A stretch of DNA of 64,000 bases from an uncultured delta proteobacterium (GCA_963737905.1 CAVTUQ010000002.1:320001-384000); one strand, 5' to 3'. Numbered from the stretch's first letter, positions 4,381-37,314 are shown. Translations and numbers: made by a program. Notes: generated by a model not told the origin, from the letters alone.

Positions 4381-4459
4381 AGAATCCTTTGGGGATCTGG
4401 AAGTAACCGACCCCGAACAGCGCATCAGAGAGCAGAACACAAGTTCGTTACGCTTGAAT

Positions 4460-4519
4460 TCTTGAACTTTGAACTGTTAAACCGCCGTGTAGCGCGGAGC
4501 GAAGCGATTGAACGATTGG
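4460..4519. repeat. TTGAAC-type REP-like repeat (GAGCGAAGCGATTGAACGATTGG)
   Basis: Similar to 14148-14195 and to the insert in remnant copies 3, 4 and 6. Confidence 0.5.
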
Positions 4520-4546
4520 TACGCCAAGATGTGCAACTCACAGGAA

Positions 4547-4657
4547 TGAGGGTTTGGTGAGCAGCGATCGCAGAGCGATCCGGGAACTGAGCCGAAGATT
4601 CAGAAAATGCTTTCAGCACCTCACCAGGCTAAGTACTTAAGTCAAGATTTGCCTCTA
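4547..4657 (+). repeat. transposase 3'-end remnant, copy 1
   Basis: GGTTTGGTGA...CTCACCAGGCTAAGTACTTAAGTCAAGATTTGCCTCTA. Confidence 0.85.
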
Positions 4658-4811
4658 CGCCTTGCGATGATTTCTGGCCAGACACGTTTCATTTTTAGCA
4701 ATTTCGCTTAGTCCATTTACTTCTCTGTTAATCTGCAGGTCGAATTGTATTCGGGAGTGCAGCGTTGGCGTCGCCGCTTCATCATGTGATAGATTACCAA
4801 GGGAGGCAGTT

Positions 4812-5045
4812 ATGTCCTGGATTGTGTCAGATGCCGATCATCTAGGCGGCAAACCCCGCGTACGGGATACCCGCATCGCGGTTGCGTTGCTTTTGGAGTG
4901 GCTGGCGGCGGGAATGACGATCGAAGAGATCGTCAAGGAGTATCCCAGCCTCACTGAGGAGGCGGTTCGTGGAACGTTGGAAGAATTAGCCCACTCTGAA
5001 TTGTTGGCGCCTAGTGAAAATTCTTCTCGACGAGAACATGCCTGA
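4812..5045 (+). CDS. DUF433 antitoxin (VapB45-like)
   Basis: GGKPRVRDTRI.V..LLE.LAAG.T.EEI..EYP.LT.E.V; RBS GGAGG. Confidence 0.9.
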   Translation: MSWIVSDADHLGGKPRVRDTRIAVALLLEWLAAGMTIEEIVKEYPSLTEEAVRGTLEELAHSELLAPSENSSRREHA

Positions 5046-5358
5046 GTCGTTGGTCGTTGCCCTGGAAGATCTCGGTCACGAGGTTGATTCGGTCAATCAT
5101 CTCAAACTGAAAGGGCTCGATAACGGGACACTCTATCGGCAAGTTGCGGTCCAATATGACCTCTGTTTTACCAGAGATACTGGCTTTGCTCACAATGTTC
5201 GCCAGATGCGAGATCCTTCACAAGTTAAAGTTCTGCGCGTAATAGTTCCCAACAGCGTACCGAATCATTCGTTCCGGCTTTTGTTGATGCTTTTCAAAAG
5301 TCCAATTGGTCGCGCTACTCGAATGGCGACGATTGGCCCTAGCTCCAAGGATACATAA
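5014..5358 (+). CDS. DUF5615 PIN-like toxin (C-terminus probably frameshifted)
   Basis: MKILLDENMP...LEDLGHEV...GLDNG...TRDTGF; coupled to DUF433. Confidence 0.82.
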   Translation: MKILLDENMPESLVVALEDLGHEVDSVNHLKLKGLDNGTLYRQVAVQYDLCFTRDTGFAHNVRQMRDPSQVKVLRVIVPNSVPNHSFRLLLMLFKSPIGRATRMATIGPSSKDT

Positions 5359-5568
5359 AGGTTGGTCGAGACGCAGTGGGAAAGTCTCCTAGCCCAAATG
5401 GTGCTAGGGCACCAAGATTTTGTCGAGAAGCTAAAAGGAATGAAGATCAAGGGTTTGGTAAGGCGCGATCGGAGAGCGATCCGGGAAAAGATCGAGACTG
5501 AAGCGAAGATCCGAAAATGGTTTCAGGATCTCACCAGGCGAAGTACTTAAGTCAAGATTTGCCCACTA
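5349..5568 (+). repeat. transposase 3'-end remnant, copy 2 (internally deleted)
   Basis: Encodes VETQWESLLAQMVLGHQDFVEKLKG fused to GLVRRDRRAIREKIETEAKIRKWFQDLTRRST*, followed by GTCAAGATTTGCCCACTAG. Confidence 0.85.
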
Positions 5569-5617
5569 GCGGCCGTTTCTTTGCGCAGGGAAAAAGTACG
5601 TGACCTATTTGACAGAT

Positions 5618-5932
5618 TTACGAACCCAATTTAGATTTTTTTCGGACTTGCGAAGGGCGTTTGGCTTGATGACGCCGAGCGACAGTCTTCCAGAATTCGT
5701 TGTGTGACACTCCTTTGCCTGCTTTAATGCTTCTTCGTGATTTAGCAAGCAAAGACTGGAACCGGCGCGAGTGGGCTAGCATGAGCCGTTCCAAATCGTC
5801 ACTATCCTTCGGCGCTAGCAATACCGCGGCGGCCTTGCCGTTGCGCGTAATAATGACCGGGCCCTCATTCGCGCATTCATCTACATAAGCACTGAGATGG
5901 GCTTTCACGTCCGCGAGCGCTGCGATCTTCAT
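5618..5932 (-). CDS. Phd/YefM-family antitoxin
   Basis: MKIAALADVKAHLSAYV...GPVIITRNGKAAAVL. Confidence 0.9.
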   Translation of the reverse strand: MKIAALADVKAHLSAYVDECANEGPVIITRNGKAAAVLLAPKDSDDLERLMLAHSRRFQSLLAKSRRSIKAGKGVSHNEFWKTVARRHQAKRPSQVRKKSKLGS

Positions 5933-6252
5933 AGTTCGAACTCCTGTCCGCCAATAAACAACCGATCGCCTTTTTTCACGCCGATCGCCAAGACAGAGAC
6001 AGTCTTTTCCTCATGATTCACGTTGTAAAAAACACGAAACGAGTTGTTTGGCCCAAAACGCAATTCCCAGGTCGCGCCGAACCAGGCCGGCTCTTCAAGC
6101 GGTTTACGGTTTCGAGTCTCCGTCGTGGGCGTGTGGGAAAGCTGCTCTTCGGTGGTCGTCGCGACCAAACGGTGATATTTAAGCTCGATCCAATCCAAAT
6201 GTTTGTACGTCTCTGGCGCATAGCTGATCGCAAATGTGGATCGCCGCGCCAT
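5929..6252 (-). CDS. RelE/ParE-family toxin
   Basis: EEQLSHTP..ETRNRKPL...WELRFG..NSFRVFY.V...V.VLAIGVK; ATGA overlap with the antitoxin; TATAAT 8 nt upstream. Confidence 0.88.
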   Translation of the reverse strand: MARRSTFAISYAPETYKHLDWIELKYHRLVATTTEEQLSHTPTTETRNRKPLEEPAWFGATWELRFGPNNSFRVFYNVNHEEKTVSVLAIGVKKGDRLFIGGQEFEL

Positions 6253-6369
6253 TGACCACAATTATAGTCATCAACCAGTGGAAATCAAATACTCGCAGCG
6301 ATCCGCCGCGTCATATCCGCGCAAATTCATGACCCACACGATTGCAGTGAGCGAGGAAAGAGCAGTGCT

Positions 6370-6737
6370 AAAGATCAGCTTATCGAATCATCCAAAGCAT
6401 CGACGCCGAAGCGCTAATCAAGCAAGCAGGAGATTATTTCCGGCTAAGCGGCAGAGTTTACCAGGAAACGGTGTGGTATTGGCAGGAACGAGCGCTAGTG
6501 ATCATTGCACCAATACAGCGAGCTTAAGGTCTCGGTGGTTTACCGTCTCTCCGACGGCTTGAACGGTTTGAACGGATTGAACTGTTTGAACAAGTAACGG
6601 CTCATTGCCGAGCGGTTTAGGAGGGTTTGGTGAGCCGTGACCGCGGAGCCATCCGGGAAAAGATCGAGACTGAAGCGAAGATCCGAAAATGGTTTCAGGA
6701 TCTCACCAGGCCAAGTACTTGAGTCAAGATTCGACCC
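6370..6737 (+). repeat. transposase 3'-end remnant, copy 3 (longest; carries the TTGAAC insert)
   Basis: YRIIQSIDAEALIKQAGDYFRL...QERALV...ELK[insert]..LIAER..GLVSRD...WFQDLTRPST*, then GTCAAGATTCGACCCTAG. Confidence 0.88.
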
Positions 6738-6835
6738 TAGCGACTTTGCGCTTGTCGTAGCTAATTTCCGCGCAACAAGATTGGCAAGAGCACTAAGAAC
6801 AAGCTGAAGTTGGCGAGCGCGTAAATTGCGCGTGG

Positions 6836-7918
6836 TTACCGAGACGGCCGCGCCGGCAGTGGCGCCGGCCCGGAAAGTCTCTTGAAGAGATCGATGATCT
6901 CGGCTTCCCGCGGCAACTCGCGAAGCTGTGTTTCGAATTCCTCCCAAGTTAGCGGCATGGCTGGCTCCGAGGTGAGTTTCTCGTAAGCTTTGATGTACTC
7001 CGGGTCGGCTAAGGCTTTGCGCATGGCCTCACGCAATATTTTGACTTGCTCCGCCGGCGTGCCCGGCGGCAGCACAAACGGCTGGCCGGTGTCGCGTGCG
7101 CCGCGAAAAAGCTGAATGAGACGGCGGTCTTGATTTGAGCGAGCGAAACTCTCGATCTCGGAAAGTTTGGCGAGCCTGGTATCGGCGTGTTTGAAGCCCT
7201 TGGGGATGTCGATGGTGGCGTGAACATGTACCAGATCTTTATCCAACCACGCTACATTGCGCGTCAGCAAGCTGTCCAGGATGCTTACCCTGGCATCGAT
7301 TTCGTTCCTCTCCAAAGCGAAGTCGATCTCCCGCGGCGTGTAGCCGGTGACAAAACGCGGCTCTTTCATGTCCAGCATGTAGGCGAATAGCCGGGCCATG
7401 GTGTAAAGACTGTGACCGACGGCCGGGGCGCCGATGCGCACACCGCGGGACGCGGTCAAAGTTTCCCGGCTGTTGAAGCCAGCGGCCTTGCGCGTAAGAA
7501 AAGCATAGGGCGCATAGCGGGCATGAGAGCCGAGATAAATGAATTTGTCCAGATCATAGAGCACGTCGGTCTCGCCGAAAATCGTGCCCTGCACCATTCC
7601 CGTGATCATGGCGCCGACGGTCAAACCATCAGGCCGGACTGACTTGTACATGTGATTGGCTGCCTTGCGCCCGCCGGCGCCGGACATGTATTGCATGACG
7701 ATGGCAGGATGGCCGGGGATATGTTTTTTCAAGACCGGAATCACTGCGCGTGTACGTAGATCGCCCGCACCGCCGGCGTCAGTGCCGCTAAGGAGAAGAA
7801 CATTCTTGCCTTCATAGAAAGGCGTCTGGGCCAATGCCGCTGGGGCCAAGACGATCCACTGCGCCAGCAGAAGAAAGACGGTAAACACGACGATCTGCAG
7901 TTTGTGTTCTTTTTCCAT
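6836..7918 (-). CDS. TctC/Bug-like tripartite tricarboxylate transporter substrate-binding protein
   Basis: Signal peptide; FYEGK....G..AGG..D; YMSGAGGRKAAN; PDGLT; ALERNEID; PFVLPPGTP. Confidence 0.88.
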   Translation of the reverse strand: MEKEHKLQIVVFTVFLLLAQWIVLAPAALAQTPFYEGKNVLLLSGTDAGGAGDLRTRAVIPVLKKHIPGHPAIVMQYMSGAGGRKAANHMYKSVRPDGLTVGAMITGMVQGTIFGETDVLYDLDKFIYLGSHARYAPYAFLTRKAAGFNSRETLTASRGVRIGAPAVGHSLYTMARLFAYMLDMKEPRFVTGYTPREIDFALERNEIDARVSILDSLLTRNVAWLDKDLVHVHATIDIPKGFKHADTRLAKLSEIESFARSNQDRRLIQLFRGARDTGQPFVLPPGTPAEQVKILREAMRKALADPEYIKAYEKLTSEPAMPLTWEEFETQLRELPREAEIIDLFKRLSGPAPLPARPSR

Positions 7919-8754
7919 TAGCCGGTTAGCTCCCACCAGTTCTTGTCCAGGTCGCTAAAGATAAAACTGGTTTTGCCGTTGATAGTGTCGAGCTGGCCGA
8001 GCTCGGTGATGCCGGCGGCCTCGCCGTTGGTCGAGAATTCGCGGTGCGCTTGCTCAACTGCCGCGGCTGAATCCATTTGCAAAGTGAATCGGTTCACCGG
8101 TGCTAGATACTGACGCGGGCTGCGCTTCAAGACCACGATGTACCAGGGTGCGGCGGCGTGCTTGACGTATTGGGCGTTGTTGAATCCCGCCAGGATTTCG
8201 AGTCCCAAAACATCGATGTAGAAGCGGCGGCTGCGCTCGATGTCGTCGCACTGGAGCGTGCCGTGGGTGAAAGCCTGCGGCACGTAGCCGCGTTCGGAAA
8301 AGCGCTCGTCGGTGAGCGGCTTATCCCAATGGCCGGCGGTGTGAGCGCGGCCGTGCTGCGCGCCACCGGGATTGTAATATTCGATCTCCAGATGGTTGCC
8401 GCCGGGCTCGCGAAAATAGATCGAGTAAGCGAAGTGCGCGCTCTGCGGTTTGGTGATTTTGCTGAGGTGGTATTTCTCTTTGTTGGCCTCGATGTATTTC
8501 CAGGCGGCTTCGACTTCTTCATGGCGGGCGACGCGAAAGCCGTAGTGATTGTCAAAGCCCTTTTCTGGCGCGTCCGGACCGCCTTCGTGGACGATCAGGC
8601 GCCAGTCGGTATTGGGATGCTTGAGGGTGGCCTCGCCCGCTTTTTGCTCGACGATCTCCATCGCCAATAGATCGGTAAAGACCGGAAGGGTTTCCGACAG
8701 CGACCGGCATTCGTAATGGCCCGCAACGAGGCCGGTGGTGCGCAAAATTGACAT
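7918..8754 (-). CDS. two-domain VOC/glyoxalase family protein
   Basis: HYGF...SIYFREPGGNHLEIE; HGTL...FSDLDKNWWEL; RBS GGGAG. Confidence 0.88.
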   Translation of the reverse strand: MSILRTTGLVAGHYECRSLSETLPVFTDLLAMEIVEQKAGEATLKHPNTDWRLIVHEGGPDAPEKGFDNHYGFRVARHEEVEAAWKYIEANKEKYHLSKITKPQSAHFAYSIYFREPGGNHLEIEYYNPGGAQHGRAHTAGHWDKPLTDERFSERGYVPQAFTHGTLQCDDIERSRRFYIDVLGLEILAGFNNAQYVKHAAAPWYIVVLKRSPRQYLAPVNRFTLQMDSAAAVEQAHREFSTNGEAAGITELGQLDTINGKTSFIFSDLDKNWWELTG

Positions 8755-8952
8755 TGTTTTCTCCCTGAGACCGTAATCCGCGGCTCCGTGCAAAATATCA
8801 GCACGCCAAAGTGGTAGCAATGCTGTCCGACACGGTCTCAGTTCCCGTACAGCGTTTTGAGAAATCCTTCCTTTTCCACCGACCATTAGCATAACGGTGA
8901 AAGCCGGCAAGTTCAGTCAACATTCGATCTCTTTTCGCCCGTTAATGGGTGG

Positions 8953-8981
8953 TTGCGACATGACCTGTATATGACTATAAT
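8953..8981 (+). promoter_or_regulatory. sigma70 promoter, probably giving a leaderless TA transcript
   Basis: TTGCGA-17nt-TATAAT, with the ATG 6 nt downstream and no RBS. Confidence 0.65.
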
Positions 8982-8987
8982 CTGGCC

Positions 8988-9239
8988 ATGAATGTTGTAA
9001 ATGTAGCCATTTTAAAGGAAAAACTCAGTTACTATCTGAGCCTGGTCAAGTTGGGCGAAGAAGTCGTCGTCACCTCGCATCGTCATCAGGTCGCGCGAAT
9101 AGTTCCGGCGGCCGCTCCTTCGGCGGAGATCGTGGAGCCTACTCGCCCGGTCAAAGACTTAAAAAAAGTAAGAGGCATTACGCCCAGACGATCGTCGTCC
9201 GGAGTGAAATCTCTTTTAGACGACCGCCGGCGCCGATGA
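8988..9239 (+). CDS. Phd/YefM-family (VapB) antitoxin
   Basis: VNVAILKEKLSYYLSLVKLGEEVVVT....VARIVP. Confidence 0.88.
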   Translation: MNVVNVAILKEKLSYYLSLVKLGEEVVVTSHRHQVARIVPAAAPSAEIVEPTRPVKDLKKVRGITPRRSSSGVKSLLDDRRRR

Positions 9240-9655
9240 CCGTTTACGTCGACACGTCGATCGTCCTGCGCATACTGTTACGGGAGCCGAACCCGGTAGG
9301 CATTTGGGGTCAATGGAACAAAGCCTACAGCAGCGCCCTGTGGCGCGTCGAAGCGTTGAGAACGGTCGACCGGCTCCGGTTAACTCAAGAAATCTCCGAT
9401 TCCGAAGTCGCGGAGCTCGTGCATGAAATCAAGATTATCAACCAAACCTTCGCGATTCACCCGCTCACAAACCAAATCTTTCAGCGAGCGAGCGAAACTT
9501 TTCCCACTGTGGTCGGAACCCTGGATGCGATTCATTTAGCCACGGCGCTCTCGATACGTGAAATTGAAAATATTGATTACCTGCTGACCCATGATTCGCA
9601 ACTCGGCACCGCTGCTAGAAGCCTTGGATTCGACGTGATGGGAATGGATCAGTAA
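9236..9655 (+). CDS. vapC: VapC PIN-domain toxin
   Basis: VYVDTS...E...GTLDAIHLATAL...LTHDSQL. Confidence 0.9.
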   Translation: MTVYVDTSIVLRILLREPNPVGIWGQWNKAYSSALWRVEALRTVDRLRLTQEISDSEVAELVHEIKIINQTFAIHPLTNQIFQRASETFPTVVGTLDAIHLATALSIREIENIDYLLTHDSQLGTAARSLGFDVMGMDQ

Positions 9656-9689
9656 AAAGATCGGCGCCGAAATGTGGGGGCTGCGAAAT

Positions 9690-9971
9690 ACCGGAGGGAC
9701 TGCGGGCGGTATCGGCAGGAACGAGCGCTCGTGATGGAGCTATTGCATCGATACAGCGAGCTTAAGGTCTCGGTGGTTTACCGTGTCTCCGACGGCTTGA
9801 ACGGTTTGAACGGATTGAACTGTTTGAACGAGCAACGCTCATTGCCGAGCGGTTTAAAGGTTTGGATGAGGATTTGGTGAACCGCGATCGCAGAGTGATC
9901 CGGAAAAGATCGCGACTGAATCGAAGATTCGAAGTGGTTTCAGGATCTCGCGACGGTAATTGCTTGACCCC
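9690..9971 (+). repeat. transposase 3'-end remnant, copy 4 (with the 66-nt insert)
   Basis: GRYRQERALVMELLHRYSELK[VSVVYRVSDGLNGLNGLNCLNE]QR...; ends TTGACCCC. Confidence 0.85.
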
Positions 9972-10091
9972 ATGCCTCAATGAGTCGCTCGACCTCCGGA
10001 TTTTCGAAGATCCTAACGATAACTTTGTCCAACTAGTCAACATGTCCCTATTCTCCATCCGGTTCAGTCAAGCTTATCTCGTCAAGGCCTA

Positions 10092-11301
10092 AATTTCCCT
10101 CGACTTAGCAAATCGGCTTTTATAATGTGAGCTGTGACCGGTTTCGGTGCCTGCTCGATTTTTTGTTTCCAGGAGGAACTGAACAATGAAAAAAATCATC
10201 GTGTCGATGATCTCGCCACTGCTGATCGGCGTGTTGCTGCTTACCGCTCCATCGACGTTCGCCCTAGATAAAGTCAACGTTACTCTGCCATCCAGGTCGT
10301 TTCAGTTCATCATCTTTCCGCTCGCCAAGGAGCAGGGTTATATGAGGGAGGAAGGAATCGATCTTAATATCGTCGTCATGGCGTCCACCCCTAGCCTTCA
10401 AGCCGTGCTGGCCGGAGAAATGGATTTCACCGGTTCCGGGAGCGGCGCTCTAGTCGCTGTCGCTAAAGGTAATGCTCCGTTCAAAACCGTGTTGGCGGTC
10501 ACCGACCAGGTGCTGCAGTGGCTCGTCGTGCGGCCGGAGTACAGTGCTTTCAAAGAACTAAAAAATAAGAAGATCGCCGTGACCGGGGTCGCCACGGTGG
10601 CGCCGTTCATGTTGAAGAGGATCGCTCTAAAATACGGTCTCGACGGCAACAGGGATTTTACGTTTATCGCGCTGCCGCCTGGTCAACGCCTCACGGCGCT
10701 CCAATCGGGAGCCGTGGATGCCGGCCTATTGAGCTCGGAGGAACGCTTTGCTGCTCTCGATCTCGGTATGAAAGAGATCTTGTATCTGGGCAAAGAGGTG
10801 AAAAATTCTTGGGGCACAGTGGCGACCACCGATCAATTTATCAAAGCCAAACCAAAGGTGACGCATGGTTTCATGCGTGCCCTCCTTAAATCCCTGCGCC
10901 TCGTCAAGCAGAACCGCGAGATCGCGATGGACACCATGATGAAATTTTCAGGGTTAACCAAGGAATTGGCGGCGCGGACATACGACGGCATGATCGGAAC
11001 CTTTACAACCAACGGCGTGGTCGACGAAGAGACGCAGAGAAACGATCTCGACATCGTTCGCGAGGTCTTCAATATATCAAAGGAGGTGCCCATCGAGCGG
11101 GCCTACGATTTCAGGTTCGCAAAGAAGGCGGACAGCGAGCTGACACAAGAAGGCTGGAAACCTTAGAAACTTTTTCACGGTCGGACTTGGTCGGACTATC
11201 GAATGATCCAAAGCATCGACGCCGAAGCGCTAATCAAGCAAGCAGCGGATGATCGCCGGGTGGTTTGTAGGTTTGGATGAGGATTTGGTGAACCGCGATC
11301 G
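10092..11301 (+). repeat. 1210-bp near-identical direct repeat, copy 1 (upstream region + SBP gene + 5' part of the remnant)
   Basis: Matches 15617-16826 at a constant offset of 5525; one synonymous difference seen (CTC vs CTG). Confidence 0.92.
10186..11166 (+). CDS. ABC substrate-binding protein, SsuA/NMT1-like
   Basis: Signal peptide; AKEQGY..EEGID; LKNKKIAV; RL.AL.SG.VDAG; RBS AGGAGG. Confidence 0.9.
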   Translation: MKKIIVSMISPLLIGVLLLTAPSTFALDKVNVTLPSRSFQFIIFPLAKEQGYMREEGIDLNIVVMASTPSLQAVLAGEMDFTGSGSGALVAVAKGNAPFKTVLAVTDQVLQWLVVRPEYSAFKELKNKKIAVTGVATVAPFMLKRIALKYGLDGNRDFTFIALPPGQRLTALQSGAVDAGLLSSEERFAALDLGMKEILYLGKEVKNSWGTVATTDQFIKAKPKVTHGFMRALLKSLRLVKQNREIAMDTMMKFSGLTKELAARTYDGMIGTFTTNGVVDEETQRNDLDIVREVFNISKEVPIERAYDFRFAKKADSELTQEGWKP

Positions 11302-11396
11302 TAGAGCGATCCGGGAAAGGATCGAGACCCAACCGAAGTTCGGAAAGTGGTTTCAGGATCTCACCAGGTTAAGTACTTGAGTTACGATTTGACCGC
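11197..11396 (+). repeat. transposase 3'-end remnant, copy 5
   Basis: YRMIQSIDAEALIKQAAD, then a deletion, then GLDEDLVNRDRRAIRERIETQPKFGKWFQDLTRLST*, ending GATTTGACCGCTAG. Confidence 0.85.
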
Positions 11397-11907
11397 TAGC
11401 GATCGCCCTGCACCATTTTTTGCTCCACGGTTCATTAGATGATAGACAGCTCCGGGACACTGGATACGAAGCGGCCGTGGCATAAGACGGTGAGTACCAC
11501 AGATTGTCAACAAAAGATTTGACCACTCTAGGACCTTTTAGAGGAGAGTCCATCTGACCCCCTTTTTCATCCACTTTTTTCATCCAAAAATCGAGCATCT
11601 CCCTTTTCCCTTGCCATCATTGGCCGGGAACCAATGTGGTAACTTTGTGTCAATTCTCTCCGCTATTCTTTCACCCGGCAAAAGATCCAGCGAAATTTTC
11701 TTGTCGGACTGTTCTCGATGGCCTAAAATTCGTCACCATGATCGAAATTCGGATATGGATTTTCCGATCTCGGAGAATCTGACGCAAGAAGCTGATCTGC
11801 TCTCATCAACCTCTTGAGATTGCAAAATTGTCGGCGTGTTCATACGGCTTATATCAAATAAAATATCATGTCTGACCCAGTGTCCAGTGTCTGACCCCGC
11901 TCGCCCA

Positions 11908-12780
11908 ATGCTTCGCTCCAGAAACGTCTTCGCAATTTTTCTGGCACTGCTGACCGGCTGTGCTAACGCGCCGCGGGTGGATCTGGCGGCGCCACTCCCT
12001 CGCATTCGCTACCTGCTAACGTTCGACGACGGTCCAAGCAGTGCGTCGTCGCGTAACTCCACGGCCAGTATCGCAGATACGCTCGTGCAGAACCCGACAC
12101 AAAAGGGAATCAAAGCGATATTTTTCGTGCAAACGCGAGCCCGCACGGCGGGAGGTTCCGATACCGGAAAAAAGTTAATGCAGCGTCTGTTCGCGGAGGG
12201 TCACGTCCTCGGCTTGCATAGCGGTTCGGCCCGCGGCCACGTCAGCCATCGAGCGATGGAATCTTCCGAACTCGTCGTCTCACTCGCGGACGGTATGGCC
12301 GACATTGCCTCTGTCACCGGAGAGCCGCCGTCTTTGGTGCGGCCCCCGTTTTGGGCTTTCAGTTCCGTCACGCTGGACGCGTACCGGCAATCGGGTCTGT
12401 CCATGATACTCACCGATATCTCGAACCGCGACGGCGGGCCGTTCTTGTTTCAGGCGAATCCCACCGACGGCGGCACCATCCGCAATGATTTGGTACGCTT
12501 TCGAGAACGCTTGCGAGCGAGCGAGGTTCCACTCGTGGATGGCATAGCACCGGTGATTGTTACGTTTCACGATACCAATAACTACACAGCCGCGCATTTG
12601 TCTGACTATCTGGCGACGCTTGTCAGCGCTGCAAGTGACGTCCGGCTCGGCATGGCGGATCCACCGTATTATAATGATCGCGCAACCCTGCTCGCGGCCG
12701 CGCAAACAAGAAGCGGTGACACGGCCAGTCGTCGTGATATGGTTCCCTGGCCCTGGAACCTGATTTGGGCCGTACACTAA
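11908..12780 (+). CDS. polysaccharide deacetylase (NodB/CE4) lipoprotein
   Basis: Lipobox LLTGC; LTFDDGP; HS....H; RPPF; TFHD. Confidence 0.88.
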   Translation: MLRSRNVFAIFLALLTGCANAPRVDLAAPLPRIRYLLTFDDGPSSASSRNSTASIADTLVQNPTQKGIKAIFFVQTRARTAGGSDTGKKLMQRLFAEGHVLGLHSGSARGHVSHRAMESSELVVSLADGMADIASVTGEPPSLVRPPFWAFSSVTLDAYRQSGLSMILTDISNRDGGPFLFQANPTDGGTIRNDLVRFRERLRASEVPLVDGIAPVIVTFHDTNNYTAAHLSDYLATLVSAASDVRLGMADPPYYNDRATLLAAAQTRSGDTASRRDMVPWPWNLIWAVH

Positions 12781-12870
12781 TGCAGGCGGGCGGATGCAGT
12801 CGTATTCACCTGCACGCTGGGCAAAGAAGAAATGAGCTAGTCCGGGATGCCGCCAGAAATCCAAAAGATC

Positions 12871-12937
12871 TTGCCTGCCACCCCTCCAACGTCAGCCGGG
12901 CGCTGCAGAGGAGTTAGTAGACTTAGGCAAGTCTGAC
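12871..12937 (+). repeat. second-family transposase-like 3'-end remnant (ACHPSNVSRALQ.S*...GGCAAGTCTGAC), copy A
   Basis: About 67-bp direct repeat with 14017-14083. Confidence 0.75.
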
Positions 12938-12951
12938 GGTATTCAATTTGC

Positions 12952-13209
12952 CTCATCAAGTTTGGTGTAGTGCGTCCGGGCGCCGTTGCCGGAGAGAATT
13001 TCAGCTCCCTGTTCGATGCCTGTGAAGAATTGGCCTTGTCCCAGAAGCTGTCGTGCCTTATCGCGGGAGTGAATACGGCGCGCCAGGAGGCTTACCGCCA
13101 GATGCTTGCGCGCGGCTTTCGCGCCGAACTTTTAGGAGTGGCGATGGAGAAGCCGAACGAAGCGGGTTATAACCGACCGGGTGTTTATCTCATTGACGAT
13201 TGGCGCTAG
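12952..13209 (+). pseudogene. C-terminal fragment of a GNAT-family acetyltransferase
   Basis: IKFGVVRPG...LIAGVNTARQEAYRQML..GFR...GYNRPGVYLIDDWR*; no 5' half, begins just after repeat A. Confidence 0.65.
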
Positions 13210-13419
13210 TGAATGGCGCCTAGCAAAACAGTATGGCAAAAAATAAAGCAAAGCCCGTCCCGCGATTAGAAACACTTCGAACATTTGTTGATCAGCAAGC
13301 CGAAGCAAATCACCGTTCAGGGTACGACTCCAACCCTTCTCGTAAACTGTCGTGATTGTGTGTGAGTTTAGAAAATCGCGCAGAGGCACAGGAGTGCCTT
13401 GATCGAAGAGAACCCGCAT
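13132..13419 (-). pseudogene. truncated DUF5615 PIN-like toxin
   Basis: MRVLFDQGTPVPLR..L..H...T..E.GW....NGDLL..A....FEVFL, after which similarity is lost. Confidence 0.75.
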
Positions 13420-13424
13420 GGTCC

Positions 13425-13649
13425 TCAGTGCGCTTCTGTTTGTAAGCTACGCTGAGCGTGCTCTAGCACTGCTTCAGCCATTTCTCTGGAGACCCCAGGA
13501 AACCAGGAAAGGAAATCGTCGATCCGCGCGCCGCTTTCAAAATTTTCGAACAGCGCTTTAACTGGCACTCGCGTACCACGAAATACCCAGGCACCACTAA
13601 CCCGGTCAGGATCGCGCTCGACAGCAGGGCAAGAAGACCAATCCAGCAT
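13425..13649 (-). CDS. DUF433 antitoxin
   Basis: DWSSCPAVERDP.RVSGAWVFRGTRVPVKALFEN...G..IDDFL.WFPGV. Confidence 0.9.
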   Translation of the reverse strand: MLDWSSCPAVERDPDRVSGAWVFRGTRVPVKALFENFESGARIDDFLSWFPGVSREMAEAVLEHAQRSLQTEAH

Positions 13650-13710
13650 GGTTAAAGGTTAGCCGGATTTCACCCCATCGGCAAGTTCCCGCGGTACCCA
13701 GCTGAAAAGG

Positions 13711-13994
13711 TTACCAGGAAACGGGAGCGGTATCGGCAGGAACGAGCGTTAGTGAGCTATTGTATCGGTACGGCGAGCTTAAGGTCTCGGTGGTTTACCG
13801 TGCCTCCAGACGGCTTGAACGGATTGAACTGTTTGAACGAGCAACGGCTCATTGCCGGGCGATTTGGAGGTTGGACAAGGGTTTGGTGAGCCGCGATCGT
13901 AGAGCGATCCACGGAAAGATCGAGACTGAACCGAAGATCCGAGAGTGGTTTCAGGATCTCACCAGGCTAAGTGCTTAAGTCAAGATTTGACTTC
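13711..13994 (+). repeat. transposase 3'-end remnant, copy 6 (with a shorter TTGAAC insert)
   Basis: ...GLVSRDRRAIHGKIETEPKIREWFQDLTRLSA*, then GTCAAGATTTGACTTCTAG. Confidence 0.87.
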
Positions 13995-14016
13995 TAGCGG
14001 CTCCTGGCCGATTTTT

Positions 14017-14083
14017 TTGCCTGCCACCCGTCCAACGTCAGCCGGGCGCTGCAGAAGAGTTAGTAGATTTAGGCAAGTCTGAC
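14017..14083 (+). repeat. second-family 3'-end remnant, copy B
   Basis: LADFFACHPSNVSRALQKS*...GGCAAGTCTGAC. Confidence 0.75.
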
Positions 14084-14147
14084 ATAGCTATCCCTAGCTA
14101 TCCCTCTTCCGCCCCCTTGATTTTCCGTTCTCTTAATCTTCTGACGT

Positions 14148-14195
14148 CTTGAACGATTTGAACAGAGCGTAGCGGTTAAACGCTTTGAACGCGCT
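14148..14195. repeat. TTGAAC-type REP-like repeat
   Basis: CTTGAACGATTTGAACAGAGCGTAGCGGTTAAACGCTTTGAACG. Confidence 0.5.
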
Positions 14196-14343
14196 CAGTC
14201 CTGAGCACAAGATTTTGTTTCCTCGCCAGCCACTTTTCAGTTTAACAATTCGCTCAGTCAATATAGTTCTCTTGGTGGTGCGTGATTAGTGATCAGAAAC
14301 CCCATGCGACTCTTGCTCGGCATGAAAGACGGTACGGCGTGGA

Positions 14344-14664
14344 TCACGAGACATGCAGAGAGGCGTTGTCTTTTTTGCCTTGATGCGGCTTAACTACGAT
14401 TTCCACATCTTGACCGAGCGCCACCAGGAATCGCAACAAGCGTTCCACCGAGAATTGCCGAAATTCCCCGCGAAGCATCTTTGAAACATCGGGCTGCCGG
14501 ATACCCAACAACGCGGCCACCTCGACTTGTTTGAGACCGCGTTCTTTCATGATCCCATCGATCTTCCAAACGAGTTTCGCCTTAACGAGATGTTCCTCTG
14601 CGTCGGGCAGCCCGAGGTCCTTAAAGACATTTCCGCTGCTTTTTTCGTAGCGCCTGCTGTTCAT
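14344..14664 (-). CDS. higA: HigA-like XRE/HTH_37 antitoxin
   Basis: SSGNVFKDLGLPDAEE...KAKL...RGLKQ.EVA.LLGI.QPDVS....G....FSVERL. Confidence 0.9.
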   Translation of the reverse strand: MNSRRYEKSSGNVFKDLGLPDAEEHLVKAKLVWKIDGIMKERGLKQVEVAALLGIRQPDVSKMLRGEFRQFSVERLLRFLVALGQDVEIVVKPHQGKKDNASLHVS

Positions 14665-15029
14665 GACATCATCTCCTTTGCGATCCGTTCCGCTTCGCGC
14701 AGTCGTTGCCTGATTAACTCGATATCCCGGCGCGGTGTTTCGCGCCCCGTTTTTGATTTCTTTTGAAAGGCATGCAACATAAACAAGACATCTGCATATT
14801 TCAAAGTGTATACGGCGCGGAACGTATCGCCCCGATAGTCTTCAATGATCTCCAGCACCCCCGCTCCACCAAAGCCGCTTAACGCCTTTGCATCACGATG
14901 TTTGCCGCCGGTCTGGGCAATCCACAGGGCATATCCCATGCGATGCTGTACATCCTCGGGAAATTCTCGCAAATCCTTGCGGCTTGATCCAATCCAGATC
15001 AGAGGTTTAGGTGACGGCTCATCAATCAC
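14661..15029 (-). CDS. higB: HigB-like RelE-superfamily (Gp49-like) toxin
   Basis: KPLIWIGSSRKDLREFP..V...MGYAL..AQ.G....AK.L.GFG.AGVLEI...GDTFRAVY...LHAFQKKS. Confidence 0.9.
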   Translation of the reverse strand: MIDEPSPKPLIWIGSSRKDLREFPEDVQHRMGYALWIAQTGGKHRDAKALSGFGGAGVLEIIEDYRGDTFRAVYTLKYADVLFMLHAFQKKSKTGRETPRRDIELIRQRLREAERIAKEMMS

Positions 15030-15037
15030 TTAGTCAC

Positions 15038-15066
15038 AATATAGTGAATTCACCATATTAGGTCAA
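15038..15066 (-). promoter_or_regulatory. higBA promoter with an overlapping palindromic operator
   Basis: Minus strand TTGACC-17nt-TATATT; palindrome AATAT(A)GTGAATTCAC(C)ATATT at 15038-15059; start codon 8 nt downstream. Confidence 0.7.
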
Positions 15067-15185
15067 GATAACCCTAAAAGCATTGCATCGACCGAGCACT
15101 TTGGAACTAGCGGATGATCCCGGATGCCAACGAGAGTGCTGGGCCCGACCGGACCTGCACTACATTGCTAGACCCCATGGTTTTG

Positions 15186-15322
15186 CTCGCAAATCGCTGA
15201 TCGCGATCGACGAAAAAATTATTCCCAGCATCAACCAAATTGCAAAATCGAAAAGAGTTACATCTGCGAAGCTCATCAATCAATGGTTGCGAGAAAAGAT
15301 CGCAACGTCAAAGCGGGCCTGA
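15186..15322 (+). pseudogene. 3' fragment of a CopG/ribbon-helix-helix antitoxin
   Basis: RKSLIAIDEKII..INQIAKSK.VTSAKLINQWLREKI*; no proper start. Confidence 0.55.
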
Positions 15323-15355
15323 TCATTCGGTCAAGCGCGAAGAATGGGATAGGGT

Positions 15356-15489
15356 GCGGTTTAGCGGTTTGGATGGAGCTTTGGTGAGCCGCGACCGCAG
15401 ACCGATCCGGAAAAAATCGAGACTGAACCGAAGATCCGAAAGTGCTTTCAGGATCTCACCAGGCCAAGTACTTGAGTCAATGTTTGGCC
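15356..15489 (+). repeat. transposase 3'-end remnant, copy 7
   Basis: RFSGLDGALVSRDRRPIR...CAGGATCTCACCAGGCCAAGTACTTGAGTCAATGTTTGGCC. Confidence 0.85.
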
Positions 15490-15616
15490 GTTTTGGCTTA
15501 TGTTCGCACTCACAATTAGTAATGTTGGATTGCAACACCTAATGGTAGACCTCAGGTCTGAAATATCCTGCCGAATGCAGATTCTTCCGAATATCAAATC
15601 CCGTCGTCAAGCATTG

Positions 15617-16826
15617 AATTTCCCTCGACTTAGCAAATCGGCTTTTATAATGTGAGCTGTGACCGGTTTCGGTGCCTGCTCGATTTTTTGTTTCCAGGAG
15701 GAACTGAACAATGAAAAAAATCATCGTGTCGATGATCTCGCCACTGCTGATCGGCGTGTTGCTGCTTACCGCTCCATCGACGTTCGCCCTAGATAAAGTC
15801 AACGTTACTCTGCCATCCAGGTCGTTTCAGTTCATCATCTTTCCGCTCGCCAAGGAGCAGGGTTATATGAGGGAGGAAGGAATCGATCTTAATATCGTCG
15901 TCATGGCGTCCACCCCTAGCCTTCAAGCCGTGCTGGCCGGAGAAATGGATTTCACCGGTTCCGGGAGCGGCGCTCTAGTCGCTGTCGCTAAAGGTAATGC
16001 TCCGTTCAAAACCGTGTTGGCGGTCACCGACCAGGTGCTGCAGTGGCTCGTCGTGCGGCCGGAGTACAGTGCTTTCAAAGAACTAAAAAATAAGAAGATC
16101 GCCGTGACCGGGGTCGCCACGGTGGCGCCGTTCATGTTGAAGAGGATCGCTCTAAAATACGGTCTCGACGGCAACAGGGATTTTACGTTTATCGCGCTGC
16201 CGCCTGGTCAACGCCTCACGGCGCTGCAATCGGGAGCCGTGGATGCCGGCCTATTGAGCTCGGAGGAACGCTTTGCTGCTCTCGATCTCGGTATGAAAGA
16301 GATCTTGTATCTGGGCAAAGAGGTGAAAAATTCTTGGGGCACAGTGGCGACCACCGATCAATTTATCAAAGCCAAACCAAAGGTGACGCATGGTTTCATG
16401 CGTGCCCTCCTTAAATCCCTGCGCCTCGTCAAGCAGAACCGCGAGATCGCGATGGACACCATGATGAAATTTTCAGGGTTAACCAAGGAATTGGCGGCGC
16501 GGACATACGACGGCATGATCGGAACCTTTACAACCAACGGCGTGGTCGACGAAGAGACGCAGAGAAACGATCTCGACATCGTTCGCGAGGTCTTCAATAT
16601 ATCAAAGGAGGTGCCCATCGAGCGGGCCTACGATTTCAGGTTCGCAAAGAAGGCGGACAGCGAGCTGACACAAGAAGGCTGGAAACCTTAGAAACTTTTT
16701 CACGGTCGGACTTGGTCGGACTATCGAATGATCCAAAGCATCGACGCCGAAGCGCTAATCAAGCAAGCAGCGGATGATCGCCGGGTGGTTTGTAGGTTTG
16801 GATGAGGATTTGGTGAACCGCGATCG
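15617..16826 (+). repeat. 1210-bp near-identical direct repeat, copy 2
   Basis: Matches 10092-11301. Confidence 0.92.
15711..16691 (+). CDS. ABC substrate-binding protein, SsuA/NMT1-like (same protein as 10186-11166)
   Basis: Identical 326-aa translation. Confidence 0.9.
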   Translation: MKKIIVSMISPLLIGVLLLTAPSTFALDKVNVTLPSRSFQFIIFPLAKEQGYMREEGIDLNIVVMASTPSLQAVLAGEMDFTGSGSGALVAVAKGNAPFKTVLAVTDQVLQWLVVRPEYSAFKELKNKKIAVTGVATVAPFMLKRIALKYGLDGNRDFTFIALPPGQRLTALQSGAVDAGLLSSEERFAALDLGMKEILYLGKEVKNSWGTVATTDQFIKAKPKVTHGFMRALLKSLRLVKQNREIAMDTMMKFSGLTKELAARTYDGMIGTFTTNGVVDEETQRNDLDIVREVFNISKEVPIERAYDFRFAKKADSELTQEGWKP

Positions 16827-16921
16827 CAGAGCGATCCGGGAAAAGATTGAGACTGAACCGAAGATCCGAAAGTAGTTTCAGTATCTCACCAGGCTAAGTA
16901 CTTAAGTCAAGATTTGATCCC
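16722..16921 (+). repeat. transposase 3'-end remnant, copy 8
   Basis: ...CTCACCAGGCTAAGTACTTAAGTCAAGATTTGATCCCTA. Confidence 0.87.
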
Positions 16922-19900
16922 TAACGCTTTTATTGCACAATAACTGCTTGACGGGAAATATAGGATGTCCTCTAGTTTTGTCCTAGCCTGCAAACCACTG
17001 CTCTTTTTCCGCGACTTGCCCAACAGGCACGATTTTCCTCGCAACATTCTCCTTGCACTTGGATTCGGCAGCGGCAACCAAGAAAGCTGGGTACTGATCT
17101 GCATTCTTGACGATTTGAACTGCACGCTCCAAAGGAATCACTCTTTTTTCAGCTCGGGTCATGAATTGCTGATATGCAGAACGCTTTGACACCACGCCCT
17201 TTCTGAAACAACGCGCGATCACTTGCAGCGAATGCTCCCAGTGTTCGTCGCCCGTCCCAAGAAGCAGAACTGCACCGTTCTGGCAAAACTGCAGAATCCG
17301 CTGATCATCAGATGTATAATCGGCCAAATACTTGCGATACAGCGTTAACTGGGTGCTGGGTGGCGTTCGAAGTGCCAGGGCAACACAACTTCGCGGCGAA
17401 ATCGAGTCTGGCAGAGATTTTAGGTTTAGCTCGAGTAGTCGATCGCCCGATTGCGTCAGAGTTAGCGCTATGCCATGTTCAACAGAGTCATAGAATCGCG
17501 TCCAGTCACCGTCCTCAAGCTCAGCCATGACGGACTCAAACTGAGGAAGCGACTGTATAATCGTGTTTTCGCTGGCCCAGGTTAACCACAATTGGCTGAC
17601 CTGAAGTTTCTGTAGGGTACTCTGCGCTGCATGAAACTGTCTCGGCCACCATGCCGCTGTACCCGCGCGAAGACGCGCGTATCTTGATCGCCTGCACAGG
17701 GATTTACTATCCTCGAAGGGATCTGGACAGTCTGTGCACGTCTCAGTCGTTGATTTAATACCACTCCCTACATTGGCCATATGGTAGAAAGCCCATTCAT
17801 TATCCCAGTGTCGTCTTCCTTCTTCTACAACAGTGTCCCAGGGGGACAACTCCGTCGCCCATTCACCTGCTGGTCGGTCCGATTGCTTCTGCACAACGGC
17901 AATAAAAGCAGAGCACGTCCCGGCATTAATGGAGGAGGGTACTGAAGCGGTTGTCGTGCGAAGTTCTGAAAAGGCCTGAGGTTCGGCATGAGTCCAACTC
18001 GTAGAGAGCGGAACATTGTGCGGAAACTTGAACGCAACAGCGTACCGGTTGACATCTAGACAGTGACCAAACAGGTCGAGGATCCCTTGTACGGGCGACG
18101 TCGAAGTCGCCTCGGTCTCCAAACGAAGAATACTCCTTAGCCCGATCGAGAACCGAGCTTCATTCGACTCCAGAAAGTCAAACCGTTTCGCCCGATACAA
18201 AAGATCAACTCTGTCGGAATTCAGTGGCTGCTCTGAAAGAATGTCTTCTAATTGCTCGATGGGGGTATTCGACAGGCAGCCGAGTTGGAGTCCATATCGG
18301 AGCCAATCCGTTCGTGCACTGGATTGAACAGCACGAGCATTGTCTAACCAGACTGGAAACATTTCAGCGGATGAAACGTTCGATTTCAGGAGATCAATTA
18401 CATCAAGTGCGTAGTCTAAAGGTGGGTGCTGACGAAGCAAGGACACGCACCGATCTACGATTTCTTGCTTTCCACAACCCTTGGGGAGCACAACGGGGTT
18501 AGAGCGTCCCCCTCTCCGGCTGTTCGCGGTTAGTACAAACCTAAGCCCCAGTCCATCTAGGATTAAATTCAAGACCTCGCTCACTGACTTTGGATATTGA
18601 GAGAAAACCCAGTCGGAGAGAAGGATCGCCCCCAAAATTCGCGGATGACTAGTAATACCGTAATCAGGATCGTTTGCAAGCTCTTGCAGCCGATCAATTA
18701 ACGACGCCAGTTCACCCTTGCTGTAGCAGCCAGCGTAGAAACGGGTCACGTTAAGCCAATAGAAATCTCGCGCAAGCGCGTCGAATCTGTCTGGCTTGGT
18801 CCCACGCTTTTCGGCACCCGGCGGTGAGTAGGGCGCTGTTTCATATAGAAACCTGGCCGCAAAGTACTCTCGCAATGGCTGGACTTCAAATTCGTACGTA
18901 CCTTGAACGCGCGATACAAGTGCAACTACTCTTTCCACCATTCCCGTGAAGAGGGTCTGCGCTAAATCAGAATTGTGCCCCTCATTTTCCAAGTATTCCT
19001 TCAGAACTTTTGTAAGCCGGTCGGCAGTAATTGCGCCGTTCCTTCTGCTCTGCTCGCGCTCGTTCCCGAGTTCCACTTCGCTATGGAGGAGCCAAGCAAG
19101 ATATCTATGAATATTGATCAGTAGTTCACGGTGATCTCGAACGGTGGGACTCTTCTCTGCTTCTCGGTTAAAAAAAAGCTCGATATAGTTGTCATATAAA
19201 GCCGTCCGTTTATCAGGAAGGGAAGTACCTCGGGTGTGGATTAAACTAAGCAGAATTGCAAGTTGCATGGGATTTCTTGCCAAATCTCGTAGGTGAGGTT
19301 GGGTCAGTTTTTCCTTCAGAATCTTCTTCACCTCATCGCTCTCTCGCTCTTGCAGGCGTCGTGCCTTCAACCATTTTTCCGCGTATTCGTCGATCAACTC
19401 GCGACTCAGGTCGCCAAGTTCAAAGTAGTTGAATTTATCTTCCGGTAGACCCGGAGAATTGGCGAAAGCAGCAGGTCTACTCGTAACAACAACCTGAAGC
19501 GAGGCAGCATTGGCTTCTAGCCGGTCAAGGCCCTTGATGATTTCATCCACAACCTCTCGCCTGCGCTCGATATCGGCTACCTCATCGAGACCGTCAAAGA
19601 CAAGCAATATCGCGCTTAGCTTAGCGACCGCGTGCAAATCCGCTACCTCGAAGTGGATGCCACCAGATTGATATCTTATTAATGCAGATAAGAACGCTTC
19701 AAGAGACTTCGTCCACTCCCCTGCGACGATTTCACCACCCTCTGGCGTAAACGGGTTTCTCCTCGCTAGCCAGCTTGCTAGGTCTCGTAGGTCAACTTTG
19801 ATAGGCAGTCGCAAAGGAACTGTTTTGTATGATTCAGGAAGTTGCTGAATTTCCCCTGAAACCTCCAGAAGTCGCATCCGATGAACCTGGCAAAGAAATT

Positions 19901-20126
19901 GTGTGATAGTCGACTTCCCTTGGCCTGGGGCGCCCTCAAGTACGACGCGAGGAGACACGAATTGTGAACGCGAGCTGAGCAGGTGCGTATTCCGATGAAA
20001 TCGGCACCGATTCCGAAGCAAATCGGCATGCAGTCCGAGCAAATCGGCAATCCGAGGAGTCGGAGCGAAGCGACGCTGGGATTTTGTTCATAACCTAAGG
20101 GTACTGTTGGTTGCAAGTCCGTTAAA

Positions 20127-20855: not shown

Positions 20856-20983
20856 CGGAGATTTTCCTTTCTCGTTTTGGTTATCGATAAATTGGGGGTG
20901 GTCTACCCCTTCATCCCATTGAGAACGTGCGTCAAGGAGGCTTTAAACGCGTCGTTTTTTTCACGGTCATCTGATTTCTCGGT

Positions 20984-37204: not shown

Positions 37205-37259
37205 GTTTCCACTCCTGATTGCTTATTGGCCAAGGCTGGCGGTAGCGAACCTGGCCGAT

Positions 37260-37300
37260 GGGGCGCAAATCTTGACTTGAGCACTTGTGAGATCCTGAAA
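37260..37300 (-). repeat. short transposase 3'-end remnant, copy 9 (opposite strand)
   Basis: Reverse complement reads TTTCAGGATCTCAC-AAGTGCTCAAGTCAAGATTTGCGCCCC. Confidence 0.75.
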
Positions 37301-37314
37301 TGACATTCCAAGCT

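Follow-up and report, generated by a model that had tools for sequence, protein, structure and literature searches.

In a 64,000-nt stretch of contig C2 from an uncultured soil bacterium of the Binatia (assembly G000, GCA_963737905.1), we found eight co-oriented fragments of one gene alternating with small cassettes of toxin-antitoxin (TA) and accessory genes. We refer to the whole 64,000-nt stretch as the window, and positions without a contig name are counted from its first letter. The fragments match the 3' end of a gene for a Y1 transposase and are right-end relics of a TIRtron, a unit bounded by terminal inverted repeats (TIRs). They are clustered at a single locus and recur in related genomes and metagenomes, where the cassettes of the window stand in other orders, and the breakpoints between such orders lie at different positions within the repeat. 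The reading that we favour, and that we hold about evenly balanced between right and wrong, is that the relic right ends serve as portable direct repeats for shuffling by homologous recombination, giving an integron-like outcome without a dedicated enzyme. The assembly comprises 6.7 Mb in 46 contigs and is 87% complete, with 6.7% contamination.

All eight fragments, designated c1 to c8, lie on the + strand, together span 4544-16929 and differ in extent on the 5' side (Table 1). Common to them are the last ~130 nt of the gene and a hairpin directly after its stop codon. A preliminary description of this DNA had proposed eight direct copies with a fixed 3' terminus. The copies are present, in the same orientation and close to where they had been placed; the 19-mer terminus consensus is matched by 4 of the 8 at ≤ 3 mismatches, against 0.01 expected by chance, the termini of c1 and c7 being divergent and the hairpin of c4 being short by ~12 nt. 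The protein tail that had been translated from the copies was right as well, since the core consensus reads DEGLVSRDRRAIREKIETEPKIRKWFQDLTRLST followed by a stop. The copies themselves are broken by frameshifts (c3, c4 and c6 among them), by internal deletions in c2, c5 and c8, and by an insertion of 58-66 nt in c3, c4 and c6.

In order to map copies genome-wide, nhmmer was run with the ~130-nt core over all G000 contigs. The search returned the eight window copies at E ≤ 1e-30 and two weaker remnants, one at C2:317401-317450 (+), lying 2.6 kb before the window begins, and one on the opposite strand within the window (37255-37320); beyond these no core match below E 0.3 was found in the whole assembly. 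All 10 copies thus lie inside 40 kb of one contig, none being dispersed in the manner of miniature inverted-repeat transposable elements (MITEs), and because the genome-wide search yielded only these copies, clustering and co-orientation are valid assembly-wide. A dispersed family of the repetitive extragenic palindromic (REP) type, with hundreds of extragenic copies, was considered and rejected: the 18-nt right-end motif occurs in G000 at only 4 sites with ≤ 2 mismatches, all at C2:325-357 kb, and at 15 sites with ≤ 3. Scanning the window with Rfam (E ≤ 0.1) and for tRNAs returned nothing, so the repeat is not a known RNA and has no tRNA target nearby.

Of 76 candidate proteins compared with the open reading frame (ORF) of c2, 56 matched at E ≤ 0.01. 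Among the matches of ~300-330 aa, most carry PF01797 (Y1_Tnp) and two carry PF08299 (Bac_DnaA_C); several are named RayT by their sources, and the C-terminus of one, P0001 (324 aa), is exactly the array consensus. Y1_Tnp occupies aa 11-121 of the parent, with 52.6 bits in P0001 and 49-53 bits across P0001, P0014 and the L001 gene (cut-off 23), and PF08299 scores 25.2 and 22.0 bits at aa 239-299, below the cut-off of 31.5; the precomputed annotation of P0014 and P0036 also lists it. The resemblance of the tail to RAYT/Y1 transposases, pointed out in the preliminary description, was therefore borne out by full-length proteins with an N-terminal Y1_Tnp domain and a sub-threshold DnaA_C-like helix-turn-helix (HTH), and the tail does not belong to a non-transposase protein. 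Y1_Tnp was detected in none of the window fragments, and Pfam searches of their ORFs gave nothing useful; given the positions of the two domains, the fragments consist of the HTH region and the tail. Six short proteins among the matches, P0034, P0043, P0045, P0052 and P0055 (113-128 aa) and P0002 (162 aa), are 3' fragments called as stand-alone ORFs and annotated DnaA, which is probably a mis-annotation of relics; an HTH-only product from such ORFs is possible.

Upstream of the gene, GGTCAAATCTTGAC stands ~45 nt before the ATG in 8 of 12 aligned genes from other genomes (L001, L002, L003, L007, L010, L020, L033 and L039), with at least one further G in front in 7 of these. The fullest form of this left inverted repeat (IRL), GGGGTCAAATCTTGACTT.AGTACTT, found upstream of full-length genes, is the reverse complement of the 3' terminus of the array, so the parent is a unit bounded by TIRs. 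These are ~26 bp long and start with GGGGTCAA, and their first 8 nt fit 7 of the 8 positions of GGGGWSAS. The "fixed 3' terminus" of the copies is accordingly the right TIR of a TIRtron. Genes for TIR-associated tyrosine transposases (TIRYTs) are described as residing in TIRtrons, whose TIRs often fit GGGGWSAS (Di Nocera et al. 2013, PMC3733652; Quentin et al. 2018, PMC6006769). In these papers, 20 of 26 TIRYT examples fall in subclass 2.1, and every example has one of three HTH domains (PMC3733652, PMC6006769); the TIRYTs are subclass 2.1 of the TnpA-REP-like Y1 proteins, and subgroup 2.1.2 includes Bac_DnaA_C-like C-termini (Quentin et al. 2018, PMC6006769). By its domains and ends, the parent is a ~324-aa RAYT-like Y1 HUH transposase with a sub-threshold DnaA_C-like HTH, from a ~1.1-kb unit of this known TIRYT/TIRtron family. 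The family had already been described under these names (PMC3733652, PMC6006769).

A close full-length parent gene was not found in G000 by tblastn and PF01797 searches, an absence that is unproven because the assembly is 87% complete, and none was present in 5 of 5 further fragment-bearing relatives. All paralogues in G000 are at ≤ 35% identity; an intact one with 35% identity and a different TIR lies on C32. On C25 (85729-86202) we found a left-end relic of a related TIRtron, consisting of the IRL GGGGTCAAATCTTTATTCTTGAC and aa 1-140 (70% identity) and ending just past the catalytic core. Contigs L007 and L033 likewise end at aa 147, and in L135, L106 and L147 copy termini directly adjoin paralogue fragments that end at about aa 138-147. 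Fragments of a different Y1_Tnp paralogue also stand right after some copy termini, in convergent orientation (L116:3980-4531 (-), L135:4937-5038 (-) and L147:6333-6437 (+)). Motif and nhmmer searches of the window array found no IRL. A 274-nt MITE-like derivative with both an IRL and a right end occurs at L047:912-1185, in a genome that also has full-length copies. Over 84 distinct cores, variability at codon positions 1, 2 and 3 was 0.064, 0.060 and 0.087, and the hairpin after the stop was the most variable part of the repeat (0.144). With codon variability near flat, the relics evolve almost as non-coding DNA; by this measure they appear to be dead, frameshifted pseudogene tails under nearly neutral evolution.

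Among genomes of the same family, 8 of the 63 sampled contained the core; of the 337 other genomes of the class that were searched, none did. An exact 18-mer of the core picked 119 metagenome loci, of which 77 had a core match at E ≤ 1e-3 and the other 42, having none, were left out of further analysis. Together with the genome loci and the window they form a pooled set of 102 loci and 155 copies; many metagenome loci repeatedly sample related strains, so locus counts are not counts of independent events. Among the 77 metagenome loci, 48 had one copy, 20 two, 6 three, 2 four and 1 five. In the pooled set 33 loci had at least two copies, 29 being wholly co-oriented and 4 mixed, and the 147 copies that could be chained reach on their 5' side to parent aa 195-327. 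None of the metagenome loci held a full-length gene, and full-length-like rows were limited to L001/L056, L002/L060, L003 and the 274-nt L047. The cargo in other arrays was similar to that of the window (HigB, Phd, BrnT/CopG and Gp49/HTH pairs, a GmrSD nuclease), with an NMT1 protein and Rieske oxygenase, and a sensor kinase with two receivers, as further examples. Literature searches returned no description of this array habit, nor of an integron in Binatia; the parent family is known, and the arrangement of its right ends in gene arrays is apparently undescribed.

Cassettes of the window, designated A to G, were found on other contigs at 89-96% identity and in different orders. L083 has a 242-aa ORF and 1.1 kb of other DNA, then a copy, cassette F, another copy and the sequence found behind the upstream remnant in G000, with a c2-like copy and B further along. 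L182 has B, a copy and F, without C, D and E. In L116 a 5.5-kb sensor-kinase cassette lies between two copies, at a place where L117, L149 and L166 have a single hybrid copy; the hybrid of L117 combines the 5' diagnostic sites of L116 copy 1 with the last ~30 nt of copy 2. L169 has a copy, F, a junction with 3-nt microhomology, the tail of E and a c6-like copy, which looks like the outcome of a circle, closed by an illegitimate join, having re-entered via the repeat. The arrays of L083, L116, L182 and L140 were seen in part, not whole. Logan contigs from 4 other runs of 3 studies carried joints such as 5555→14119, 13991→5609, 8820/8878→5603 and 10096→15692; read-level joints were taken from these contigs only, uncovered parts and small word shares not counting as evidence.

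The positions of the breakpoints were read from pairs of copies. Up to core column 28 no difference separates c5 from c8, and beyond it 16 sites distinguish them; this places the breakpoint at or before column 29. L098 has its downstream flank in common with L143/L179 and differs from them only at columns 10-55, which places the breakpoint after column 55; L121 and L154, again with a common downstream flank, differ at columns 11-92, and here it lies after column 92. For L116/L117 it falls between about column 10 and column 101. An interval at or before column 29 is incompatible with one beyond column 55, and therefore the breaks did not occur at one site. In every mapped case the terminal ~30 nt went with the downstream flank, and the spacer from the terminus to the first cargo gene varied among contexts for cassettes B and F. 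A pairwise comparison of upstream and downstream flanks (263 rows) was noisy because long copies have gene-derived upstream sequence in common, and only pairs with one-sided mismatches were kept. The preliminary description had proposed looking in relatives for cassette gain or loss exactly at the GACCCC/TAG junction. Gain, loss and reordering do occur at the repeats, with breaks that lie inside the repeat and not at this junction, and such positions fit homologous recombination or gene conversion, not GACCCC/TAG cleavage.

The favoured reading can be put as follows. This region would be a flexible-genome island of an uncultured Binatia bacterium, in which TIRtron right-end relics part TA modules and accessory genes. 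The relics themselves would be passive, acting as direct repeats of 130-400 nt and 80-90% identity that are substrates for ordinary homologous recombination. Recombination between two relics may delete or duplicate the intervening block, and the block may re-insert at any other relic via an excised circle or incoming DNA. The relics would have originated as transposase-made insertions, later shortened at their 5' side through deletions or illegitimate joining. We infer recombination of RecA type, circles as intermediates and this origin of the relics.

Several observations weigh against this reading. The two incompatible breakpoint intervals rest on few informative sites, and short-read assemblies may mis-join at repeats, so that some differences in order are possibly artefacts; the G000 bin also carries the contamination given above. 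Where the hairpin arm could be recognised (71 distinct copies), homology stops within ~0-10 nt after GATTTGACCC(C) and the flanks beyond are unrelated, with a nested retention of the tail (TAG in 19, TAGC in 13, TAGCG in 7 and TAGCGAC in 3). On the other side, the 83-87 distinct 5' junctions are spread out along parent nt 659-980 (~330 nt), none deeper into the gene and without a common motif. In the window as in L069, cassette A terminates in one and the same GGCCCTAG, yet the copy directly behind it is cut at aa ~193 in the former and at aa 276 in the latter. A sharp end against many flanks is the mark of transposase-made junctions, and homologous recombination leaves both the relic origin and the sharp right boundary unaccounted for. 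That the 5' reach is short throughout points to one of three origins: one-ended events that aborted, one truncated founder whittled down afterwards, or the loss of longer copies.

The same asymmetry is what makes an enzymatic explanation, the idea behind the preliminary description, worth weighing. Here a TIRYT acting in trans would cut single-stranded DNA (ssDNA) just 3' of the right-end hairpin and move either the segment between two successive right ends, or one right end together with neighbouring DNA, to a place beside another right end, the relics being attC-like and the array growing through one-ended events. We regard this as an unlikely though serious possibility, and the broader proposal, that the relics are live sites for a TIRYT acting in trans on ssDNA and form an integrase-free HUH-driven platform for TA- and defence-rich arrays in Binatia, as rather unlikely. 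The enzymatic explanation would account for a right boundary that is sharp against ~70 unrelated flanks and a 5' side that is ragged and always short, for the co-orientation in 29 of 33 multi-copy loci, as strand-specific HUH chemistry predicts, and for the two differently truncated copies that begin right after the same terminus-like GGCCCTAG. Terminus-like 11-mers within 60 nt upstream of 4 of 83 5' junctions (222 of 20000 control windows; 3 of the 4 represent one junction type), tandem short copies in L182, and relatives with full-length elements bearing both TIRs or with the MITE-like IRL-to-right-end derivative of L047 point the same way. However, all mapped gains, losses and duplications break inside the repeat, the terminal ~30 nt going with the downstream flank; the hairpin and terminus are its most variable part; and the spacers of cassettes B and F differ among contexts. 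Neither G000 nor the five further relatives yielded a close intact TIRYT, and the array has no IRL. Folds of three copies as ssDNA, on both strands, were weak (z-scores -0.8 to -2.6), the only structures in the core being two small local hairpins and a 6-7-bp long-range pair, with no fold resembling attC. Transposition might instead have placed the relics alone: 5'-truncated products of one-ended TIRtron insertions, terminated prematurely as in IS91-type events, would have landed repeatedly between pre-existing genes of a permissive island that they never mobilised, and later homologous recombination would have reshuffled the result. The fixed right end, random 5' breakpoints and short lengths agree with this, as do the comparably sized left-end fragments found on C25 and in other genomes (aa 1-27 to 1-140) and the excess of fragments over full-length genes. 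We nevertheless find it distinctly unlikely. For 147 copies compared with the pooled loci, which had been chosen for having copies, no empty site with the flanks joined without a copy was found; free transposition would not predict the confinement of all 10 genome copies to 40 kb of a single contig; and a TIRYT is a Y1 enzyme, the established cases of one-ended transposition by rolling circle being those of Y2 enzymes.

Site-specific recombination was weighed in two forms. Tandem integration at one att site leaves co-oriented 3' gene ends punctuating cargo, as in islands that target tRNA genes, and the array has this signature; a recombinase targeting the 3' end of the TIRYT gene could have accreted integrative elements in the manner of tycheposons or genomic islands, each insertion leaving a copy of the target 3' end. 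This we consider very improbable, given that the array holds no recombinase gene or remnant, that 3 of 185 pooled loci contain sequence resembling a tyrosine recombinase and none of the 3 is a multi-copy array, that the cassettes measure 0.7-3 kb with repeat lengths that are ragged and not set by one crossover site, and that an intact target gene stands at neither end of the array. Alternatively, the blocks could be integron cassettes in a cluster of attC sites lacking integron-integrases (CALIN), with the relics at, or in place of, the attC sites of the genome's own integrase. The genome does encode a bona fide integron integrase, at C7:226498-227442 (+) (TIGR02249, 456 bits against a cut-off of 265), beside an ImuA/ImuB-like block and small HTH genes, and the cassettes are TA-rich like those of sedentary integrons. 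The statement in the preliminary description that there was no integron integrase thus holds for the array and its surroundings, and not for the genome. The integrase is nevertheless on another contig and the core is not near it, cargo genes point both ways, and the breakpoints are not at one site. A crude scan found no R''/R' pair or long imperfect palindrome in relics or flanks; as a regular-expression search it gave 0 attC sites in the array and 4 in 2.6 Mb of background, and it proves nothing because, lacking a positive control, it also gave 0 beside the true intI. We find this last explanation scarcely credible.

By Pfam, the cargo of the array comprises five TA-like pairs (DUF433/DUF5615, Phd/ParE-like, Phd/PIN, DUF433 with an unnamed ORF, and Gp49(HigB)/HTH_37), two NMT1 and one TctC-like binding proteins, a VOC protein and a polysaccharide deacetylase, with genes in both orientations (Table 1). 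Directly beyond the array lies a NACHT gene, 16983-20042 (-), encoding a 1019-aa NACHT/STAND NTPase. Pfam agrees here with the cargo that the preliminary description had listed, including the NACHT gene after the last copy. An IS21 pair follows this gene (IstB 20127-20855 and IstA 20984-22531, within the region 16983-22531). The NMT1 blocks in cassettes D and G are one duplicated block with 1 mismatch in 1210 nt. Cassettes E and F each hold a copy of a 67-nt direct repeat of 96% identity; the copy in F begins 18 nt past the c6 terminus, and the copy in E has no relic ahead of it, which suggests a lost relic or a composite cassette.

Table 1. Relics and cassettes of the array, in window coordinates
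Feature	Coordinates	Strand	Content
c1, right-end relic	4544-4659	+	core only, parent aa ~295-324, and hairpin; nhmmer E 1e-30; TTGAAC-type repeats just upstream
Cassette A	4660-5349		DUF433 4812-5045 +; DUF5615/PIN-like 5014-5358 +; terminates in GGCCCTAG
c2, relic	~5350-5573	+	extends to parent aa ~193 (WESLLAQMVLG); internal deletion fuses ..KGMKIKG with LVRRDRR
Cassette B	5574-6344		Phd antitoxin 5618-5932 -; ParE/Gp49-like toxin 5929-6261 -
c3, longest relic	~6345-6742	+	parent aa ~222-324; frameshifted; TTGAAC insertion 6529-6594
Cassette C	6743-9689		TctC-like 6836-7936 -; VOC 7918-8910 -; Phd 8988-9239 +; PIN 9236-9655 +
c4, relic	~9690-9979	+	parent aa ~255-324; TTGAAC insertion 9767-9832; terminus minus ~12 nt of hairpin
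Cassette D	9980-11196		NMT1-type binding protein 10186-11166 +; block 10092-11301 duplicated as G
c5, relic	11197-11403	+	YRMIQSIDAEALIKQAAD, internal deletion, core; 5' part = c8 up to 11301
Cassette E	11404-13710		polysaccharide deacetylase 11836-12780 +; 67-nt repeat 12871-12937; gene fragment; unnamed ORF 13132-13419 -; DUF433 13425-13649 -
c6, relic	~13711-14001	+	parent aa ~255-324; TTGAAC insertion 13784-13841
Cassette F	14002-15347		67-nt repeat 14017-14083; HTH_37 antitoxin 14344-14664 -; Gp49/HigB-like toxin 14661-15029 -; small ORF
c7, relic	~15348-15498	+	parent aa ~286-324; divergent terminus
Cassette G	15499-16721		second NMT1 block copy; 15617-16826 = 10092-11301
c8, relic	16722-16929	+	5' part duplicates c5; last ~100 nt only ~85% like c5
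Isolated inverted remnant	37255-37320	-	terminal ~65 nt; E 1.7e-6; just after amidohydrolase gene

The insertions in c3, c4 and c6 are of the TTGAAC type and lie at the same codon boundary, between K and Q of the HTH; they are absent from the orthologous copies in L182 and L169. Short tandem repeats with this 9-bp period (TTGAACNNN) occur genome-wide, at 103 sites with at least 3 exact units and 68 with at least 4; the sites are distributed over many contigs and lie between genes and even within ORFs. Within the window they are found at 6529-6594, 9767-9832, 13784-13841, 4440-4530, 14130-14190 and 33449 (-). The 9-bp period recalls the spacing of DnaA boxes, and the genome has several TIRYT paralogues with DnaA_C-like domains; any connection between the two would be pure speculation.

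If the favoured reading is true, dead transposon ends can organise a cassette-exchange island of integron-like appearance without a dedicated recombinase. Gene content in a soil phylum that has received little study would then be kept flexible by simple means, and the case would warn against labelling every cassette array as "integron-like machinery". To our knowledge the TIRYTs, a large group of RAYT-like genes, have no known role. If the relics were live sites for a TIRYT, this group would gain a function, and the enzymes that build gene-cassette arrays would include HUH enzymes beside tyrosine recombinases. Under either reading, the contrast between a sharp right end and a short, ragged 5' side in ~70 contexts is a testable clue to how TIRYT elements move.

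Among known systems, integrons and CALINs resemble the array in their small, self-contained, TA-rich cassettes, in the ~130-nt repeats between them, and in gain, loss and reordering among strains; the array differs in having no adjacent IntI, no attC structure detected by the scan without a positive control, cargo in both directions and several breakpoint positions. In IS26 arrays, direct-oriented full-length copies of a DDE-transposase element alternate with cargo, and a translocatable unit of one copy and its cargo leaves as a circle and enters at another copy, by its own enzyme or by RecA. The alternation is the same here, whereas only dead fragments of a Y1 element are present, with no linked enzyme. 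Elements of the IS91/ISCR type encode Y2 HUH enzymes of Rep-like type, have oriIS/terIS and keep one end fixed next to variable DNA, and ISCR arrays keep the whole gene or large parts of it. Truncated copies there also retain the end downstream of the transposase gene, but the parent here has Y1_Tnp (PF01797) and no Rep-like domain. IS200/IS605 elements have a Y1 transposase and subterminal hairpins, lack TIRs and need both ends, in contrast to a parent with TIRs and an array of right ends only. REPs, bacterial interspersed mosaic elements (BIMEs) and REPINs with their RAYTs likewise consist of short repeats that form hairpins and stem from the sequences flanking a Y1 gene; REPs, however, are extragenic palindromes of 20-40 nt spread genome-wide, and the repeats here include 100-390 nt of coding sequence and occupy a single locus. 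Closest in kind are the TIRtrons themselves, for which the papers, in their passages on these elements, report genes that stand singly and TIR repeats that are either dispersed or clustered, and not arrays with cargo (PMC3733652, PMC6006769). The parent agrees with that family in its Y1_Tnp domain, its sub-threshold DnaA_C-like HTH and its ~26-bp TIRs close to GGGGWSAS, and the window differs in holding 5'-truncated right ends only, all in one direction and with cargo between them.

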